Positions 22,157 through 31,878 of a stretch of 64,000 nucleotides of DNA are shown in pieces; positions within the stretch are counted from its first letter, which is position 1; each line of letters begins with the position of its first letter. The stretch comes from Oceanicaulis sp. (GTDB taxonomy: Bacteria; Pseudomonadota; Alphaproteobacteria; Caulobacterales; Maricaulaceae). The stretch covers positions 958,630 through 1,022,629 of the forward strand of contig CBDDJM010000001.1 of the NCBI GenBank assembly GCA_965229795.1, in the 5' to 3' direction. A program made the translations under genes and the position numbers. The notes under the pieces are model-generated. The model saw only the letters and a program-made list of their open reading frames with translations. It did no database searches and was not told the DNA's origin.

Positions 22157-24610
<2,454 letters not shown>

Positions 24611-24633
24611 TCGACGCGTTCAGCCCATCAACG

Positions 24634-24671
24634 CAGCGGCGCTCTGGCAACGGAGCGCCGCTGTTTTTTTT
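24634..24671 (+). terminator. rho-independent terminator after katG
   Basis: Perfect 11-bp stem CAGCGGCGCTC/GAGCGCCGCTG with an 8-nt loop, followed by eight T residues. Confidence 0.85.
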
Positions 24672-24731
24672 GGCTAACGCCAAAATAACCAATTGATAGA
24701 ATTTGTCGCAGGCTTCGCATAAAAGTTGCGC

Positions 24732-24842: not shown

Positions 24843-25535
24843 ATGTCGAACATTGCGGGGAAGGCGTATGCGATGAATGTCGTGACGCCGAGCAACCGGA
24901 AGATCAGCTGGATCAACCGGACCATATTCATGTTTTTCCGCTGTCTACCCACTGCCCTCCAGGGCCTGCTGGGGTTGCAGCTGATCCACTTTGCACGCTG
25001 GGTCTTTATCAAGCCGGACCAATGGCCGGACCTGGGTCAGGGCAAACAGACTGTGCAGAATGACTATGTGCTGTTCTGCTCCAACTTTAACGGCACCTGG
25101 GACCAGTATATCGACGCCTTCTCCGATGGCATTCCATTGGGGCTGGACCTGTTTTGGTATTCCTCGATCAAATACCCCCGGTCGATCCCCATCACGCCCT
25201 TCAAAAACTACATTACTTTCAACCAGATAAATACTGATTACTACTATAATGCGACCCCGGGCTCGGCCCAGCGCGACATCAAGACCAGCCTGTCCATCTA
25301 TAATCAGGTGGAAAAGCTGACCGAGCTGCACCGCACAGCTACGCCCGATGAGTTCGCAGCCGCCTACGCCAAGGTCGCCAGCCTGATCCAGAACGGTTTG
25401 GGCGATCCCGGCTTTGGTCCGGTGGCCAGCCTTGATACCGAACGGGCCCAGGTCAATCGCTATGCCTATGCCGAGCACAATCACGGCCATGCCTCTTCAC
25501 CCGCCACCGATGCCGCCACACCGAAGGGGGCCTGA
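24843..25535 (+). CDS. uncharacterized protein (operon ORF1, 230 aa)
   Basis: This is the longest ORF in the region, and its stop lies 3 nt before the ORF2 start. Motifs: LIHFARWVFI (48-57), DYVLFCSNFNGTWDQYIDAF (74-93), TDYYYNA (131-137). No family recognised. An alternative start is the ATG at 24873. Confidence 0.7.
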   Translation: MSNIAGKAYAMNVVTPSNRKISWINRTIFMFFRCLPTALQGLLGLQLIHFARWVFIKPDQWPDLGQGKQTVQNDYVLFCSNFNGTWDQYIDAFSDGIPLGLDLFWYSSIKYPRSIPITPFKNYITFNQINTDYYYNATPGSAQRDIKTSLSIYNQVEKLTELHRTATPDEFAAAYAKVASLIQNGLGDPGFGPVASLDTERAQVNRYAYAEHNHGHASSPATDAATPKGA

Positions 25536-25538
25536 ACC

Positions 25539-26603
25539 ATGCCGGATTTTGATAACGGACATATCTTCCTGACCACGCTGGCCCCCATCAAGCCGGGCGC
25601 ACCAGCTGATGACCCCCAGGTTTCCCATGGCCAGCGGATCCGCACGGGTCTGTCGCTGATGCCGGTTGCACGCCAGTCACCCGCCACCGCGAACGCGCAC
25701 GCGATCAGCCCCTTTGCCCGCAACACGCGCAACCATCTGGCGCGCATGTTTGTGCTCAATGACACGGTCTATAATGGCCGCAATACGATGAACCCGCTCG
25801 CGGCCATCTTTCGCAGCATCCCTGTCATTCGAAACTTCTTTGGCGGCGGCGTACCGGCCAACGTCCTGAAGCCGCAGAAGATGGACCATCTGAACGCGTC
25901 CTATCTGGTGTTCTGCGCCGATATCGATGCGATCACGGACGATGGCGATCCGCTTCCCGCCAGCCTGAATGCGGACCAGCAGCGCGAGGTGCGCCATTCC
26001 TATGCGCGCAAGCTGTGGGAGACGATGAGCGAGGAGCTAACGGCGCTCTACTCCAATTGCTACGGGTTTGAAGGCGTTGATTCAGCTGAGAAGTTTGCCG
26101 CCTATCTGGATCGCTGCCACGTGGAAACGACCATGCCGTTCCACGATTATTACTTCCAGAATCCGGGCTTCAAGAACTCCAGGTTGATGATCGCGCTGGG
26201 CGCGGTGACGGCCCTGACCTTCGCCGCAGCGATTGTGGGCTTCGCGCTGCACATGTTTGGCCTTGCGACTATCCCCTTCATTAGCTGGCCCACCAATCTG
26301 TTCTGGCCTGGCGCGACCCTGCTCGGTCTTGTGCTGGGTTTCATCACCGTGAAATTCATCAATTCACGCGGTCAGAAGCCCTTCCCGCTGGGCAGGTTTG
26401 ATGATCTGCCGTCGGTGCTCAAAGCGATCTACATCCAGCAGAAGCTGGCCGATTTCTACATCGACAATCAGGGTGCCGATCCTGACGCGCTGCATGCCGC
26501 CTTTGGCAAATTCATCGCCGAGCACGACCCACAGAACACGCATTCGAAAACGCAGAAGCCGGGCGTTATTTCCTTGGCCGATCCGCAAAACGTAACCCCC
26601 TAA
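25539..26603 (+). CDS. uncharacterized membrane protein (operon ORF2, 354 aa)
   Basis: The soluble N-terminal roughly 210 aa carry NHLARMFVL (65-73), SYLVFCADID (121-130) and HDYYFQN (202-208), colinear with the ORF1 motifs. Two predicted TM helices (about 216-241 and 256-274) and a 75-aa tail follow. Confidence 0.7.
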   Translation: MPDFDNGHIFLTTLAPIKPGAPADDPQVSHGQRIRTGLSLMPVARQSPATANAHAISPFARNTRNHLARMFVLNDTVYNGRNTMNPLAAIFRSIPVIRNFFGGGVPANVLKPQKMDHLNASYLVFCADIDAITDDGDPLPASLNADQQREVRHSYARKLWETMSEELTALYSNCYGFEGVDSAEKFAAYLDRCHVETTMPFHDYYFQNPGFKNSRLMIALGAVTALTFAAAIVGFALHMFGLATIPFISWPTNLFWPGATLLGLVLGFITVKFINSRGQKPFPLGRFDDLPSVLKAIYIQQKLADFYIDNQGADPDALHAAFGKFIAEHDPQNTHSKTQKPGVISLADPQNVTP

Positions 26604-26620: not shown

Positions 26621-28327
26621 ATGACACGTGAGCTGAATCTCAACGATATTCAGGGCAATATCACCCGCGCCTACGGTCGCTATTCCTTCCCGTTTGCGCG
26701 CTATTATTTCTTCCACTTCCCCGACCCGGCCTGCGGTCGAAAATTCATCGACAAGGTGCGTGAAAAGGTCACCACCGCCGCGCGCTGGCCGACCATGCAG
26801 GACAAACCCGACTGCACGACCAATTGCGCGTTCACCTTCCCGGGCCTGCTGGCACTGCAGCTGTCGATCCGGGCGCTCAAGGAGATGCCGTTCGAGTTTA
26901 TTGAAGGCATGAAGGCGCGCGCCTTCATCCTGGGTGACCGCGACCAGACCCAGACTGAAGCCGAGGCCTTTAAAGCCAACTGGAACGATCACTGGGATCC
27001 GATCTGGAAGCATAATCGGGAACTTGGCTCCGACGGCTCCAACGACGTGCACATGCTGGTCACGCTCAACGCCCAGATCAAGCCGGGCACCACCGACCAG
27101 CCGCACCCGGCGCTGGAAGAGCGCGCCGACTGGCTCATCAAACAGGCCGAAGCCTGTGGCGTACGTGTCATGGATGGCGTGGGTCCGGACGGCAAAGACA
27201 CCTACCAGTCCGCCTCGGCGGTGTTTGACAAGGTGGGCGCGCTCACCCTGCCCACCGCAAAGGAGCATTTCGGCTTTACCGACGGCATCGGTGACCCGGT
27301 GTTTGAAGGCCAGTTTGAACCCGAAGACGAAGCCAGGAATGTCATTGGCCGCGGCAAGCTGATGGGCAATGGCTGGGAGCCTCTGGCCACCGGGGAGTTT
27401 CTGCTAGGCCATCCCGACGAAAGCCAGGAACTGCCCCCAGCGGCCAAACCTCCGGAATTCATGCACAATTCCAGCTTCTTCGCGTTTCGCAAGCTGCACG
27501 AGAATGTCGCCAGCTTTGATGAGGTCGTCGATACCGAGGCTGAAAAATTCGCCAAGGTCATGAATGTCGACATCGAAGAGGCGCGCGAGACCATTCGGGC
27601 AAAGATGTGCGGGCGCTGGTCAGATGGCGTGCCGCTGATGAAATACCCGACCTACGATGAGTGGCAGGCCTTTCGCAAAGCCAGTGGCTTTATCCCGGAC
27701 ATTCAGCCCGATGATACGCCGGAGGAAAAGCAGAAGAAGGCGCTTGATGCCTATGGCAGGCACATCGCCTATATCCGCTCGCCAGAGGCGCGGGACTTCA
27801 GATATGCCGATGACATGCAGGGCTATAAATGCCCGCTCGGGTCGCATATGCGCCGGGTCAACACGCGCGATTATCTTGATCCGCTCAACGATGTCGGGAC
27901 AGACCCCAAGACCGGCAAGCCAGCAGAAAACCCCAACGCCACCAGCACGCTGAACAAGCGTCGCCGCATCCTGCGCCGGGGCCTGCCCTACGGTCCGTCC
28001 AACCTGGAGCACAAGGACGATGACACCGAACAGGGCGTCATCATGATGATCATGGGCGCAAACCTGTTCAGGCAGTTCGAGTTCGTCCAGCAGCAGTGGA
28101 TCCAGTACGGCCTCGATTTCCATCAGGGCAACAACACCTGTCCGATGCTGGGCGATCACAGCCACCACAAGCGGCACACGATTGAGTCAGACCCCGCGTC
28201 CGGCAAACCGCCCTACGTGATGAGCACGCTGAAAACCTTCGTGGAGTGCCGTGGCGGTGACTATTTCTTCGCGCCGTCGATGACGGGTCTTCGCATGCTC
28301 GCCATGGGTACAATTGACCCGACCTAA
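26621..28327 (+). CDS. DyP-type (dye-decolorizing) haem peroxidase, large form
   Basis: 568-aa ORF with N-terminal LNDIQGNITRAY, GFTDGIGDP (GXXDG), the proximal-His region CPLGSHMRRVNTRD, RRGLPYG, FEFVQQQW and C-terminal CRGGDYFFAPS. No twin-arginine signal is present. Confidence 0.88.
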   Translation: MTRELNLNDIQGNITRAYGRYSFPFARYYFFHFPDPACGRKFIDKVREKVTTAARWPTMQDKPDCTTNCAFTFPGLLALQLSIRALKEMPFEFIEGMKARAFILGDRDQTQTEAEAFKANWNDHWDPIWKHNRELGSDGSNDVHMLVTLNAQIKPGTTDQPHPALEERADWLIKQAEACGVRVMDGVGPDGKDTYQSASAVFDKVGALTLPTAKEHFGFTDGIGDPVFEGQFEPEDEARNVIGRGKLMGNGWEPLATGEFLLGHPDESQELPPAAKPPEFMHNSSFFAFRKLHENVASFDEVVDTEAEKFAKVMNVDIEEARETIRAKMCGRWSDGVPLMKYPTYDEWQAFRKASGFIPDIQPDDTPEEKQKKALDAYGRHIAYIRSPEARDFRYADDMQGYKCPLGSHMRRVNTRDYLDPLNDVGTDPKTGKPAENPNATSTLNKRRRILRRGLPYGPSNLEHKDDDTEQGVIMMIMGANLFRQFEFVQQQWIQYGLDFHQGNNTCPMLGDHSHHKRHTIESDPASGKPPYVMSTLKTFVECRGGDYFFAPSMTGLRMLAMGTIDPT

Positions 28328-28345: not shown

Positions 28346-29689
28346 ATGTTTACGAAATTTGCCAATATTTTCATCTCGCTCTTCACCCTGCTGAGGGTCA
28401 TCGTGGCGGGACTGGTCTCGCTGCTTCACCTGATTGTGATGGGCGCTGTGTCGCTGGTCTCCGGCGGGATTGGGCCGTTCCTGCTCAAACCCGCAACCCA
28501 GCAGAAGGTCTTCAACGTGTTGCGCGCCTTCTGGCCGAACATAGCGTTGAACACCGTGATCATTAAGTCCTATGAGAATACCGGCACGGTCATTGTCACA
28601 CGCCGCGAGGACGTTCTGGACGTGCTCAGCCGCGATGCGGACTTTGAGGTCGTCTACGGCAGCCGCATGAAGAAGCTGACCAATGGCGACAACTTCTTCC
28701 TCGGCATGCAGCCGGGCTGGGACTACCAGCGCGATGTCTCGGCCATGCGGCTTGCGGCGCGGATTGATGATGTGCCCAACATTGTTCTTCCCAACGCCCA
28801 AACGCGCTCCGCCGAGATTGTCAAAGCCGCCGATGGCAAGATCGACATGGTTCAGGACCTGACCTTGCAGATCCCGTGGGAAATGACGTCCACCTATTTC
28901 GGGGCCGGCGGTGAACGCGACGCCATGGCCGAGTGGACCACCAATCTGTTCTGGTATCTGTTCGCCGATCTGGGCGCTGATGAACAGCTGGATGATATCG
29001 CGATGAGCGATGCCGCCGCTCTGCGCAGCTATCTTGATGACCAAATCGCCGCGCGCAAAGCCAAGCCGACCCAGGGCGACGGTGTTCTCAACCGCTGTCT
29101 TGCGCTTCAAAAGGCCGACACCCCGGGCATGAGTGACCTGGGCATCCGCAACAATCTGCTGGGTCTGCTGATCGGGGCTATCCCGACTATTTCCAAGGCC
29201 AGCTGTTTTGCCATTGATGAGTTGCTGAACCGCCCGGAGCAACTGGCCGGTGCCCAGGCCGCGGCGCGCGAAGGCAAGGACGATCTGATGGCGAACTTTG
29301 TGTGGGAGGCGCTGCGCTTTAACCCGTTCAGTCCGCTGCTCTATCGCCGCGCCACACGCGACGCGACCATCGCGCCATCTACCTTGCGCCGGGTTCGGGT
29401 CAAGAAAGGCCAGATGGTTTTTGCCACAACCGCGGCGGCCTGTTTCGACCCCTATGATTTGGATGCCCCCGGTGCCTTTAAAACTGACCGCCCGTGGGAA
29501 ACCTATATCCCGTGGGGCTATGGCATGCACAAATGCTTTGGCAGCGCGATCAACAAGGCGGTCATTCCGGCGATTTTGAAGCCTGTCCTGATCCAGAAAA
29601 ATCTGCGCCGTGCGCCCGGTGACGCCGGCCAGATCAATAACGGCACGTCCGCCTTCCCTCAGCATTTCCATCTGGAATGGGATGCGTGA
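28346..29689 (+). CDS. cytochrome P450 with N-terminal membrane anchor
   Basis: 447-aa ORF with ExxR (EALRFNP) and the Cys-ligand loop WGYGMHKCFGSAIN. The first roughly 45 residues are hydrophobic (FISLFTLLRVIVAGLVSLLHLIVMGAVSLV). Confidence 0.88.
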   Translation: MFTKFANIFISLFTLLRVIVAGLVSLLHLIVMGAVSLVSGGIGPFLLKPATQQKVFNVLRAFWPNIALNTVIIKSYENTGTVIVTRREDVLDVLSRDADFEVVYGSRMKKLTNGDNFFLGMQPGWDYQRDVSAMRLAARIDDVPNIVLPNAQTRSAEIVKAADGKIDMVQDLTLQIPWEMTSTYFGAGGERDAMAEWTTNLFWYLFADLGADEQLDDIAMSDAAALRSYLDDQIAARKAKPTQGDGVLNRCLALQKADTPGMSDLGIRNNLLGLLIGAIPTISKASCFAIDELLNRPEQLAGAQAAAREGKDDLMANFVWEALRFNPFSPLLYRRATRDATIAPSTLRRVRVKKGQMVFATTAAACFDPYDLDAPGAFKTDRPWETYIPWGYGMHKCFGSAINKAVIPAILKPVLIQKNLRRAPGDAGQINNGTSAFPQHFHLEWDA

Positions 29690-29804: not shown

Positions 29805-29997
29805 GCGCACTCACGTGCTGAGCCGGTTATCGGTCGAAGTGCGTTTGAGCGCAAGCCTCGGATGCGAAGACACCAGAGGCACCAGCACACTGCACAATCC
29901 AGCGCGGTTGCAGCATCAAGAAGCGCTCAACCTCTATGAAAGAATTTAACACGCCATAGATTGCAAGCCGTGACAATTCAGCTTACCAAAATTGTCC

Positions 29998-31878
29998 ATG
30001 GCTTCGAATTCTTTCATCTCGCTTCTCAACCGGATCAACGGCCTTGAAAACACCAAAGCGGTGGCCGAGGCTCAGGCTATGTTCACCGCCAAACTTCACG
30101 GCGTCGTGCGTGAAGGCGGTTTGAGCCTGGAGCGCGAACTTCATGACTGGTTCGGTGAGGCCCGCTTCAACGAATTGCTGGACGGGGCAGCCCCCAGCCT
30201 GGAAGAAGCCACCACGCTGACCCAGCTCATCAGCCAGCATGAAATGATCCTGGCTAGTGAGCGCCGCTCTGACTTTGAGCCCATTGCCGAGCCATCCAAA
30301 ACGTCGACAGATGCAACCCAAGCCCTGCCATTGCGCCTTTCGCCGAGCCAAATCGTAGCTTCCATCGCTGGGATCATCACCGCTGGATCGCTGGGCCTTG
30401 CCATCACCAGCATGAATGCCGCCGATGAATGGCAGGACGACGCCGCCCGTGCCGAGGCCTTCTCAGCGCGCCTGGTGATGATGCTGGCTCGGGAACTTCC
30501 GCATGACGCGCCTACGCCGGTCATTGAAAATGTGGCGAGCGACGCCATTGAGTATTTCGAGGCCCATGGCGAGTTTGCCGACCCCAGCACTCTAAGTGAC
30601 TGGTCGCGCATCTTTACGATTGTTGGGCGTCAGCGCTGGAATTCCGGCAATACGGCAGGGGCCCGTCAAGCCTTTGAAACGTCGGTTGCAGCCACGCTGA
30701 AGCAACTGGATGCCTCGCCCAACAGCCTCGATGCGCTGTTTGATCACTCCCAGGCCGTATTCTGGTTAGCAGATTTCAATTTTCGGAACGCGGACTTTGA
30801 TGCTGCTGAAGCCGGTTTTAATACATATGCGACTTTAACAACTGAATTGTACGAAACGAACCCACAAAGCCCACTCTACCAGGCTGAATACGCTTATGGC
30901 TTTTTAAATCGTGCCATTATCGACTGGGAGCGAGGGCGCATAGAAGACGCGCTCGGCGGATTCACCGCCGCGCTGAACGATCTTTCTGATGTTGCGGAAA
31001 ATTCAGATGTTGTCAGTGCACTGGATATCGCAAACGCAAGGGCATGGCGCGCGAGCGCGCTATTTACGTCCGGGCAGTTTGGTGAGGCCAGCGCTGAGCG
31101 TGGCCGTGAACTCGCCATTTATGAAAGCGTAGAAGATTCTGCGTATGTCGAGCATCGCCGCTTGGCTGCCATGTCTCAAAGAGCGGCGGCACGTCTTGCG
31201 CTTGGCGACTTGGCAGGTGCCATCCCGCTTATCGAAGATGGTTCGGAGCTTGCTGGTCAAAATCTTAGTCAGCAGCCCGGCAACATAGAAGCGCTGCGCC
31301 GATATCTCAGCTTCATGCTTCAACGGGTTGAAGTGGCACTGGCTGAAGATCGCCTGATTGCTGCCAAGCTGATAGTTGACCACGCACGCTCCGCGCTCGC
31401 GACATATCTGGACGGCGCGGATCGGATTGTTCCTGCACGTGAGACGGCCCAGTTTTCAGTCGCTGCAGCTGAGGTCGCGATTGCATCAGGCGCGTATGAA
31501 ACCGCAAGCGAGGAAGCCGCTTCTGCAATTCGAGTACTTGGAGCCGAAAATGCCAACGAAATCCGGAGCCTGGTTCTGCATGCTTTTGCCTACCAACTGG
31601 CAGGTGAGGCAGAAGAGGCGGCCGGAAATGACGATGTAGCTCGGCGCTACTACCTTCAAGGGATTGACCTATTGCGCACCGAACCTGGAACCATTGAAGA
31701 GAATATCGTCAAAGCACGCTTGAATATCTTGCTGGGCAATGTTGCAGAAGCAAATAGCTTGCGCGATGAAATTGCAGTGTCAGGTTACTCGCATCCCCGC
31801 GATATCGCCTTCTGGCGGAGAATCAATCAATCTGGTGTCGTCCAAACTGACACCGGAGAAAATTTAAATGGCGGGTAA
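29998..31878 (+). CDS. single-pass membrane protein with long TPR-like helical-repeat C-terminal domain
   Basis: The ORF track gives 29992 (TTG); the first ATG is at 29998. An N-terminal roughly 115 aa precede one TM (IVASIAGIITAGSLGLAITS) and about 490 aa of alanine-rich helical repeats. Composition is visibly AT-richer than the flanks. No named family recognised. Confidence 0.7.
   Translation: MASNSFISLLNRINGLENTKAVAEAQAMFTAKLHGVVREGGLSLERELHDWFGEARFNELLDGAAPSLEEATTLTQLISQHEMILASERRSDFEPIAEPSKTSTDATQALPLRLSPSQIVASIAGIITAGSLGLAITSMNAADEWQDDAARAEAFSARLVMMLARELPHDAPTPVIENVASDAIEYFEAHGEFADPSTLSDWSRIFTIVGRQRWNSGNTAGARQAFETSVAATLKQLDASPNSLDALFDHSQAVFWLADFNFRNADFDAAEAGFNTYATLTTELYETNPQSPLYQAEYAYGFLNRAIIDWERGRIEDALGGFTAALNDLSDVAENSDVVSALDIANARAWRASALFTSGQFGEASAERGRELAIYESVEDSAYVEHRRLAAMSQRAAARLALGDLAGAIPLIEDGSELAGQNLSQQPGNIEALRRYLSFMLQRVEVALAEDRLIAAKLIVDHARSALATYLDGADRIVPARETAQFSVAAAEVAIASGAYETASEEAASAIRVLGAENANEIRSLVLHAFAYQLAGEAEEAAGNDDVARRYYLQGIDLLRTEPGTIEENIVKARLNILLGNVAEANSLRDEIAVSGYSHPRDIAFWRRINQSGVVQTDTGENLNGG

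Follow-up and report, generated by a model that had tools for sequence, protein, structure and literature searches.

The DyP-type haem peroxidases of bacteria have been described together with dedicated partners in two settings, the EfeU-EfeO-EfeB iron uptake system and the encapsulins, which package a DyP as cargo; outside these contexts, as far as we are aware, it is not known for most DyPs of bacteria what they act on physiologically or which proteins they work with. The DyP superfamily (CDE, after chlorite dismutase, DyP and EfeB) is built from two ferredoxin-like alpha+beta domains. Peroxide relays are represented by the lipoxygenase that is fused to a catalase-related allene oxide synthase and by the fungal Ppo proteins, in which a haem dioxygenase/peroxidase is fused to a cytochrome P450. 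Here we describe two adjacent open reading frames (ORFs), ORF1 and ORF2, that lie directly before a DyP gene in a stretch of 64,000 nucleotides (nt) from Oceanicaulis sp. (assembly GCA_965229795.1, contig CBDDJM010000001.1, positions 958,630 to 1,022,629 of the forward strand), referred to below as the window. The two encoded proteins are diverged paralogues of one undescribed domain of ~190 residues, and together they are the split form of a two-copy protein, D1-D2, that is a single chain in other bacteria. Since the pair directly precedes the DyP gene and is fused to DyP elsewhere, it is most likely an obligate partner of the peroxidase. The two genes, with lengths in amino acids (aa), are:

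24843..25535, + strand: ORF1, 230 aa, a listed ORF; soluble, D1-type copy of the undescribed domain
25539..26603, + strand: ORF2, 354 aa; copy of D2 type, with a membrane hairpin of two helices set into the domain

The original prediction was that ORF1 and the soluble domain of ORF2 belong to one paralogous family, and this stands, by way of intermediate proteins. BLASTP of ORF1 against ORF2 gave E=0.47, reciprocal hmmsearch with the ORF1 and ORF2 profiles gave no match, and hhalign of shallow orthologue alignments (effective sequence number, Neff, 1.6) gave a probability of 1.4%; on direct pairwise and shallow-profile tests alone, the kinship would have been wrongly rejected. When a diverse ORF1-family alignment was compared directly with the ORF2 family, hhalign reached a score of 31 (E=1.3e-3) over 121 colinear columns, against controls of at most 17.8 (reversed) and at most 18.5 (20 column shuffles). 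This direct profile comparison is marginal, though it exceeds every control.

The intermediates came from a search with the ORF1 profile that covered 1.84 billion representative proteins and returned, at E<=0.001, 1212 relatives (1212 representatives at 50% identity; a separate count gives 3352 homologues of ORF1). Of 150 listed representatives of these relatives, 24 are tandem two-copy (D1-D2) proteins of 370-460 aa. Their second domain, D2, matches the ORF2 family with a probability of 99.7% and E=1.9e-26 (187 columns, hhalign score 180) and the diverse ORF1-type alignment with a probability of 99.96% and E=8.8e-39 over ~180 colinear columns, while the reversed and column-shuffled controls of this bridging scored 12-20 against the real 180 (10-20 with the controls of the direct comparison included). 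ORF1 orthologues alone matched a merged ORF2+D2 profile (probability 97.8%, E=7e-13), and across the ORF1 families the merged profile gave E=7e-13 to 9e-24. The D2 domains of single proteins match both profiles colinearly, that of P0249 at 2e-20 with the ORF1 profile and 5e-6 with the ORF2 profile. Because the D2 sequences were chosen for matching the ORF1 profile, only the match between D2 and ORF2 (E=1.9e-26) is an independent test. When the copies in the fused proteins are scored with the ORF1 profile, D1 reaches 60-188 bits and D2 15-67 bits, and the ORF2 family has an hhalign score of 180 with D2 and 31 with the D1-type alignment; ORF1 therefore corresponds to D1 and ORF2 to D2.

The motifs quoted in the original prediction were all located in both proteins at the expected residues. 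The parts of the two proteins are as follows:

24870..24890, + strand: ORF1 motif 1, AMNVVTP, aa 10-16, the predicted first beta strand, ending in Pro
24984..25007, + strand: ORF1 motif 2, IHFARWVF, aa 48-55, with conserved His49 and Arg52
25065..25121, + strand: ORF1 motif 3 and the next helix, YVLFCSNFNGTWDQYIDAF, aa 75-93, a block that is invariant in orthologues
25233..25253, + strand: ORF1 motif 4, TDYYYNA, aa 131-137, with Y134 and Y135 nearly invariant
25266..25397, + strand: ORF1 C-terminal helical pair, aa ~142-185 (model helices 139-165 and 168-186)
25560..26162, + strand: ORF2 N-terminal domain part, aa 8-208, with all five motif segments
26178..26360, + strand: ORF2 transmembrane (TM) hairpin, aa ~214-274, an insertion relative to ORF1 and to the fused D2
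26394..26531, + strand: helical pair at the C-terminus of ORF2, aa ~286-331, corresponding to ORF1 142-185

The five segments of ORF2 are IFLTTLAP (9-16), NHLARMFV (65-72), YLVFCADID (122-130), YARKLWETMSEEL (155-167) and HDYYFQN (202-208). The bridged profile alignment places ORF1 A10-P16 on ORF2 F10-P16, I48-H-F-A-R-W-V-F-I of ORF1 on N65-H-L-A-R-M-F-V-L of ORF2, Y75-VLFCSNFNG on Y122-LVFCADIDA and, after an insertion in ORF2, Y89-IDAF... on Y155-ARKLW..., so that motifs 1-3 and the helix that follows are matched residue for residue, as had been proposed. For motif 4 the region is right and the register is uncertain: the bridged alignment sets T131-DYYY of ORF1 on T197-TMPF of ORF2 (within ORF2 197-204), while the direct alignment sets DYY on DYY (ORF2 203-205) through a 5-residue gap. 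Across ORF1 orthologues, ORF2 orthologues and D2 the family has a common signature, all of it colinear and conserved in the three groups: a strand ending in Pro, H-[FL]-[AG]-R-[WFM], Y-x-[LV]-F-x-[SA]-[ND], an aromatic block near T-x-x-[YF]-[YF], and the C-terminal helical pair.

One part of the earlier description has to be revised. ORF2 had been taken to add two TM helices and a 75-aa tail to the shared domain, but its residues ~286-331 align with ORF1 ~142-185 (hhalign; BLASTP placed them together too), and the TM hairpin is a gap in the hhalign alignment. Because of that gap, and because the tail pairs with the ORF1 helices, the hairpin is an insertion inside the domain; this mid-domain position is why ORF2 looks like a domain followed by TM segments and an unrelated tail. 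Of 121 ORF2 orthologues, 116 have the hairpin (hydropathy segments 214-250 and 253-274), whereas none of the 24 fused D1-D2 proteins analysed has it in D2; ORF1 has no TM segment by hydropathy. Basic residues, read from the ORF2 sequence, flank the hairpin on both sides and suggest an N-in/C-in topology. With an even number of helices and basic flanks, both parts of the ORF2 domain would lie on the cytoplasmic side.

The His and the Arg of H-x-A-R are each invariant in the orthologues of ORF1 (121/121), in those of ORF2 (121/121) and in D2 (24/24), and in the wider D1-type family they are kept in 53 and 49 of 64 members, respectively, so that the conservation of this pair, which had been suggested as a possible ligand or haem site, holds for both orthologue sets and D2 and is not universal beyond them. 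In the wider family the adjacent Trp/Phe and several other aromatic residues are better kept than either. Among ORF1 orthologues H49, F50 and R52 are each found in 121/121 and W53 in 120/121 (Trp in 57 of 64 diverse relatives), and P16 is present in all 121 orthologues and in 52 of 64 diverse relatives. The ORF2 orthologues keep H8, P16, H66, R69, C174, H194, H202, D203, Y204 and Y205 in 121/121 each, C193 in 120, Y122 and E196 in 119 and F125 in 116 of the 121; in their C-terminal helical pair D288, D289, L290, K295 and Y298 are invariant. The motifs are conserved among the homologues of both proteins.

ORF1 and ORF2 were modelled as monomers with AlphaFold2 (AF2). The ORF2 model has a predicted local distance difference test score (pLDDT) of 77, TM helices included, with a core of medium confidence, and runs strand 8-17, helix 30-40, strands 65-73 and 122-130, helices 145-171 and 183-193, TM helices 212-239 and 252-278, and helices 290-310 and 315-329. 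For ORF1 the model is unreliable (pLDDT 50, from a 29-sequence alignment of 74% identity); it shows the same order of elements, including a strand at 11-17 in this low-confidence secondary structure, and its C-terminal helices are the sole confidently predicted part. A ferredoxin-like domain could have the beta-alpha-beta-beta-alpha order that is predicted for both proteins.

No described family covers the domain. Neither Pfam nor NCBIfam gave a match over the D1/D2 region when ORF1, ORF2, 31 diverse members and the fused proteins were scanned, and among PDB sequences, searched with ORF1, with ORF2 and with profiles of the diverse family, nothing credible was found, the best matches being augmin and glutathione transferase at E>=0.2. 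In the literature on operons of DyP and P450, on links to ECF sigma and anti-sigma factors and on roseobacter DyPs we found no description of the family or of the module.

The family is large. A genome scan with one genome per species found relatives in at least 554 species genomes, the closest (98% identity) in a Maricaulaceae bacterium and most others in Rhodobacterales; strains of Ruegeria, Phaeobacter and Salipiger are among the carriers. Gene order was counted over the best 80 loci, or, for genes further along, over those with room, that is, those whose contig reaches far enough. An ORF2 homologue directly follows ORF1 in 80/80, a DyP gene directly follows ORF2 in 79 of the 79 loci with room, and a P450 gene directly follows the DyP gene in 51 of 74. 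The split ORF1-ORF2-DyP(-P450) arrangement was also seen in metagenome-assembled genomes (MAGs) of gammaproteobacteria (L035, L055, L058, L075 and L076) and in L071, a contig assigned to an uncultured Mycobacteriaceae MAG; these occurrences outside Alphaproteobacteria suggest horizontal transfer or mis-binning. In about 30 of the 80 loci (for example L002 14757-15542) the gene after the P450 encodes a GST-like protein of ~260 aa, with a GST_C_2 match at E=1.7e-8. Clustering of the flanking ORFs in the 80 alpha- and gammaproteobacterial loci, with a crude ORF caller and antisense shadow clusters ignored, showed no conserved upstream gene.

On unrelated actinobacteria-like contigs the two copies occur as one gene, with no TM segment, in operons of the order sigma/D1-D2/DyP/P450. 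In four of these the sigma gene directly precedes the fused gene:

L081 7319-9099; L085 5375-7269; L087 5393-7239; L093 3210-4999: ECF-type sigma factor gene (Sigma70_r2) and fused D1-D2

The sigma stop codon overlaps the D1-D2 start in L081, L085 and L087, and in L093 a gap of 5 nt separates the two; BTAD-type regulators were seen near two of the fused D1-D2 operons. Fusion goes further in P0288 (937 aa) and P0312 (964 aa), which are single-chain D1-D2-DyP proteins; both pass the Pfam cut-offs for DyP_N and Dyp_perox_C, and with the local DyP profile they score 314-423 bits. In the metagenomic proteins P0363, P0370, P0377 and P0384, D1-D2 is instead followed by a C-terminal domain of ~300 aa, for which a profile search gave PDB 3e4w as the best PDB match (E=4.9e-8), besides several true catalases (~1e-6). 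We take 3e4w/3e4y, an entry titled 'putative uncharacterized protein', to be the catalase-related small haemoprotein of Mycobacterium avium subsp. paratuberculosis. One accessory module is therefore joined to two unrelated haem peroxidase scaffolds, DyP and the catalase-related domain.

Distant two-domain members, P0437 and P0434 (L089 2777-7987 and L092 5909-12517), are followed by an overlapping ORF of 475-503 aa, which in L089 is divergent and DyP-like, with a faint Dyp_perox_C match (E=0.002). A GMC oxidoreductase gene lies upstream in L089, and an animal-type haem peroxidase gene nearby in L092; GMC oxidoreductases typically form H2O2. One further metagenomic protein, P0296 (719 aa), joins an nSTAND1 NTPase (PF20703, E=1e-34) to a C-terminal ORF1-type domain (aa 518-714, E=4e-47 against the ORF1 profile). 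P0241, a 562-aa fusion of ORF1 and ORF2 that keeps the TM hairpin, is known from one metagenome contig of 4.2 kb; the fusion may be genuine, or it may reflect a mutated stop codon or an error in sequencing.

The genes that follow the pair in the window, and the element that precedes it, are:

26621..28327, + strand: ORF3, 568 aa, DyP-type haem peroxidase of C/D type, class V-like
28346..29689, + strand: cytochrome P450, 447 aa, with N-terminal membrane anchor (PF00067, E=1.9e-12)
24633..24674, + strand: terminator-like hairpin 3' of katG, a stem-loop at 24633-24664 and a run of seven T

The spacing within the operon is tight. The TGA of ORF1 occupies 25533-25535 and the ATG of ORF2 starts at 25539, 3 nt on; the two share a reading frame, with the TGA and one codon between them, and a purine-rich stretch lies 5' of the ORF2 ATG. 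The gap from ORF2 to the DyP gene is 17 nt. The original prediction had looked for a DyP relationship within ORF1 and ORF2 themselves and overlooked the real link: the genuine DyP is the next gene, and ORF1/ORF2 are its conserved partner. ORF3 matches TIGR01413 at E=8e-20 and DyP_N and Dyp_perox_C weakly, all under the curated cut-offs; against DyPs in the PDB (8re3, 7anv, 5c2i and 4g2c) it matches down to E=8.5e-28, as a C/D-type enzyme. Asp221 of its GXXDG motif and the proximal His409 are present in 80/80 aligned relatives and the distal Arg pair 452/453 in 79/80. Its N-terminus reads as free of a Tat or signal sequence, and a tail that would target it to an encapsulin is not obvious.

The P450 has a hydrophobic N-terminal TM segment (aa 2-48); such an anchor is unusual among bacterial P450s. 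Its Cys397 ligand is kept in 54/54 orthologues, and the I-helix reads G-A-I-P-T, with Pro replacing the usual acid, in 53/54; the catalytic residues of the DyP and the P450 are intact. The annotated neighbours include neither a ferredoxin nor a reductase gene. An I-helix of this kind, with no redox partner seen, is compatible with a P450 that is peroxide-driven or of isomerase type.

Upstream of ORF1 lies the gene for a KatG catalase-peroxidase (PF00141, E=2e-71). Its ORF as listed starts with GTG and encodes 801 aa (region 22205-24674); the scans used a provisional start, the ATG at 22355, giving 751 aa with a peroxidase family match. The strong terminator-like hairpin after katG has a 14-bp stem with 10 G-C pairs and marks ORF1 as the opening gene of a separate transcription unit. 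KatG was considered as a member of the module and rejected on the strength of this terminator and of its adjacency in 2 of the 80 related loci; katG shares the peroxide theme with the module and is a separate transcription unit. Beyond the P450, in the slot at 29992-31878 of the window, is a 628-aa ORF with only faint TPR-like matches. The neighbours scanned were KatG, ORF1, ORF2, the P450, the TPR-like ORF and a VTT-domain protein.

We consider it probable that ORF1 and ORF2 are a split, membrane-tethered version of an undescribed accessory module of haem peroxidases, which would rebuild D1-D2 and work with the DyP. The original idea of a soluble and a membrane-tethered subunit of one fold is the natural reading of the pair, which is fused as D1-D2 in other lineages. 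ORF1 would pair with the cytoplasmic domain of ORF2, so that a D1-D2 unit is rebuilt at the inner face of the membrane; this unit would act physically with the cytoplasmic DyP of the next gene and, in most genomes, also with the membrane-anchored P450. The homology, the split and fused forms, the inserted hairpin, the gene order and the fusions to DyP and to a catalase-related domain are observed, whereas the heterodimer, the physical complex with DyP and any biochemical role are inferred. The D1-D2 unit would be a dedicated accessory that binds a ligand, cofactor or substrate for the peroxide-using haem enzyme, with the His/Arg pair of each copy as the best candidate for the binding site. Speculatively, and by analogy only, its task could be to supply or make a substrate that is hydrophobic or an organic peroxide, or to pass on electrons or haem; pointing this way are the recurrent partners, all of them haem enzymes that react with peroxides, the P450 without the acid of the acid-alcohol pair, and the failure to see a redox partner gene among the annotated neighbours.

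Several points weigh against this reading. The homology rests on intermediates, the direct comparison alone being unconvincing, and the selection of D2 by the ORF1 profile leaves one independent test. The ORF1 model is poor and both models are monomeric. Some members of the wider family lack the His or the Arg, which weakens a strict catalytic or haem-ligand role for them. Family members also occur without an adjacent peroxidase (L091), and together with the fusion in P0296 this indicates that the domain is not exclusively a peroxidase accessory. As to the weight of the finding, conserved hypothetical families are common.

A possible extension, which we hold only tentatively, is that D1/D2 is a new fold, or a cofactor or substrate module, of an unrecognised multi-component haem system consisting of D1-D2, a class V-like DyP and a P450 without redox partner, membrane-anchored in Proteobacteria. 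In one version D1/D2 would make an organic (lipid) hydroperoxide or hydrophobic substrate, or hand it to the DyP or catalase-related enzyme and to the P450, much as lipoxygenase serves the catalase-related allene oxide synthase; in the other it would be a new haem-binding electron-relay domain.

It is unlikely, in our judgement, that the two copies are ferredoxin-like halves such as those of DyP, chlorite dismutase and EfeB, with ORF1 and ORF2 forming a pseudo-dimeric barrel around a His/Arg haem site and so a second, cryptic haem protein. Such a barrel would suit the predicted beta-alpha-beta-beta-alpha order followed by helices in both proteins, the layout of ~190 + 190 aa in two domains, which resembles the N and C halves of DyP, and the recurrent partners, all of them haem proteins (DyP, P450, the catalase-related domain and the nearby animal-type peroxidase); a few of the matches of the ORF1 model in Foldseek, none of them significant, are to small ferredoxin-like proteins (such as CutA1 and 2op5; E=2-6). 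Against it, ORF1, ORF2, the 31 diverse members and the fused proteins have no match to the DyP_N, Dyp_perox_C, chlorite dismutase or ABM families of Pfam, there is no PDB profile match, and when the profiles of ORF1, D2 and ORF2 were compared by hhalign with the neighbouring DyP family, aligned from 80 sequences, the probability was 0.1%. On that value a cryptic DyP half was rejected at the sequence level, and the relationship to halves of DyP, chlorite dismutase or EfeB put forward as a speculation in the original prediction finds no support. Foldseek of both monomer models against the PDB gave no match below E=1, which, given the pLDDT of 50 for ORF1 and the medium-confidence core of ORF2, is uninformative on the fold rather than negative. 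The GXXDG motif, which the neighbouring ORF3 has, is absent from ORF1 and ORF2 as read, and a His and an Arg at i and i+3 on a strand would be expected to face opposite sides.

It is improbable that D1/D2 is instead a regulatory sensor, such as an unconventional anti-sigma factor that senses peroxide, haem or lipid and controls the expression or activity of the DyP and P450. The ECF sigma70_r2 gene immediately 5' of the fused D1-D2 in four independent actinobacteria-like loci, with an overlap in three of the four, is in the classic position of a partner of an anti-sigma factor; in one case the domain forms the C-terminus of a signalling NTPase of the nSTAND1 type, and ORF2 is membrane-anchored, like many anti-sigma factors. 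The sigma adjacency, however, was found only in the fused, actinobacteria-like versions: the gene upstream in the window is katG with its terminator, no sigma gene was found beside the window operon or in the 80 proteobacterial loci, and no upstream gene is conserved in those loci. No anti-sigma (zf-HC2/RskA-type) Pfam match was obtained, and covalent fusions to DyP and to the catalase-related domain fit an enzyme accessory better. Finally, that the shared motifs are a chance or compositional likeness between two unrelated hypothetical proteins, as the BLASTP value, the shallow hhalign probability and the empty cross-hmmsearch might suggest, is effectively refuted by the bridging matches (E=1.9e-26 and 8.8e-39 over ~180 colinear columns, controls flat), by individual fused proteins whose D2 matches both profiles colinearly and by motifs kept in both orthologue sets.

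As an accessory module of haem peroxidases, the pair turns two 'hypothetical proteins' into something testable and offers a lead on the physiology of DyPs. The unannotated family is tied to haem peroxidases by gene order and by fusion to both DyP and catalase-related scaffolds, and it is large; D1/D2 would deserve a Pfam or InterPro entry of its own. The pair also exemplifies gene fission combined with insertion of a membrane hairpin in the middle of a domain, a history that simple pairwise searches miss. Were D1/D2 to prove a new fold or module, or a haem relay, it would be the first genetic handle on the physiological role of the long bacterial DyPs.

Compared with the DyP superfamily, D1/D2 are alike in their two-copy architecture, in a predicted order of elements that is compatible and in the conserved His and Arg, and a real DyP is linked to them both in gene order and by fusion; they differ in the extra C-terminal helical pair of each copy, in the membrane hairpin of one copy and in the absence of GXXDG, and no sequence, profile or Foldseek similarity was detected. 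The likeness to the 3e4w haemoprotein belongs to the fused C-terminal domain of P0363, P0370, P0377 and P0384, whereas the module in the window has a DyP in that place. With the lipoxygenase-allene oxide synthase and Ppo fusions the module shares, by analogy only, the coupling of a non-peroxidase part to a haem domain, either catalase-related or a peroxidase, and also to a P450 without the acid-alcohol pair; D1/D2 have no similarity to lipoxygenases or haem dioxygenases, and the likeness would be one of working mode and not of family. EfeUOB and the encapsulin-DyP systems are likewise DyP operons with dedicated non-enzymatic partners, one of them membrane-bound, although the Pfam scan of the neighbouring proteins found no EfeU, EfeO or encapsulin homologue among them; here the DyP is of the long C/D type (class V-like), its partners come from an undescribed family, and a P450 is usually included. 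The DyP system is one of a known kind, and its accessory domain belongs to no family described so far.

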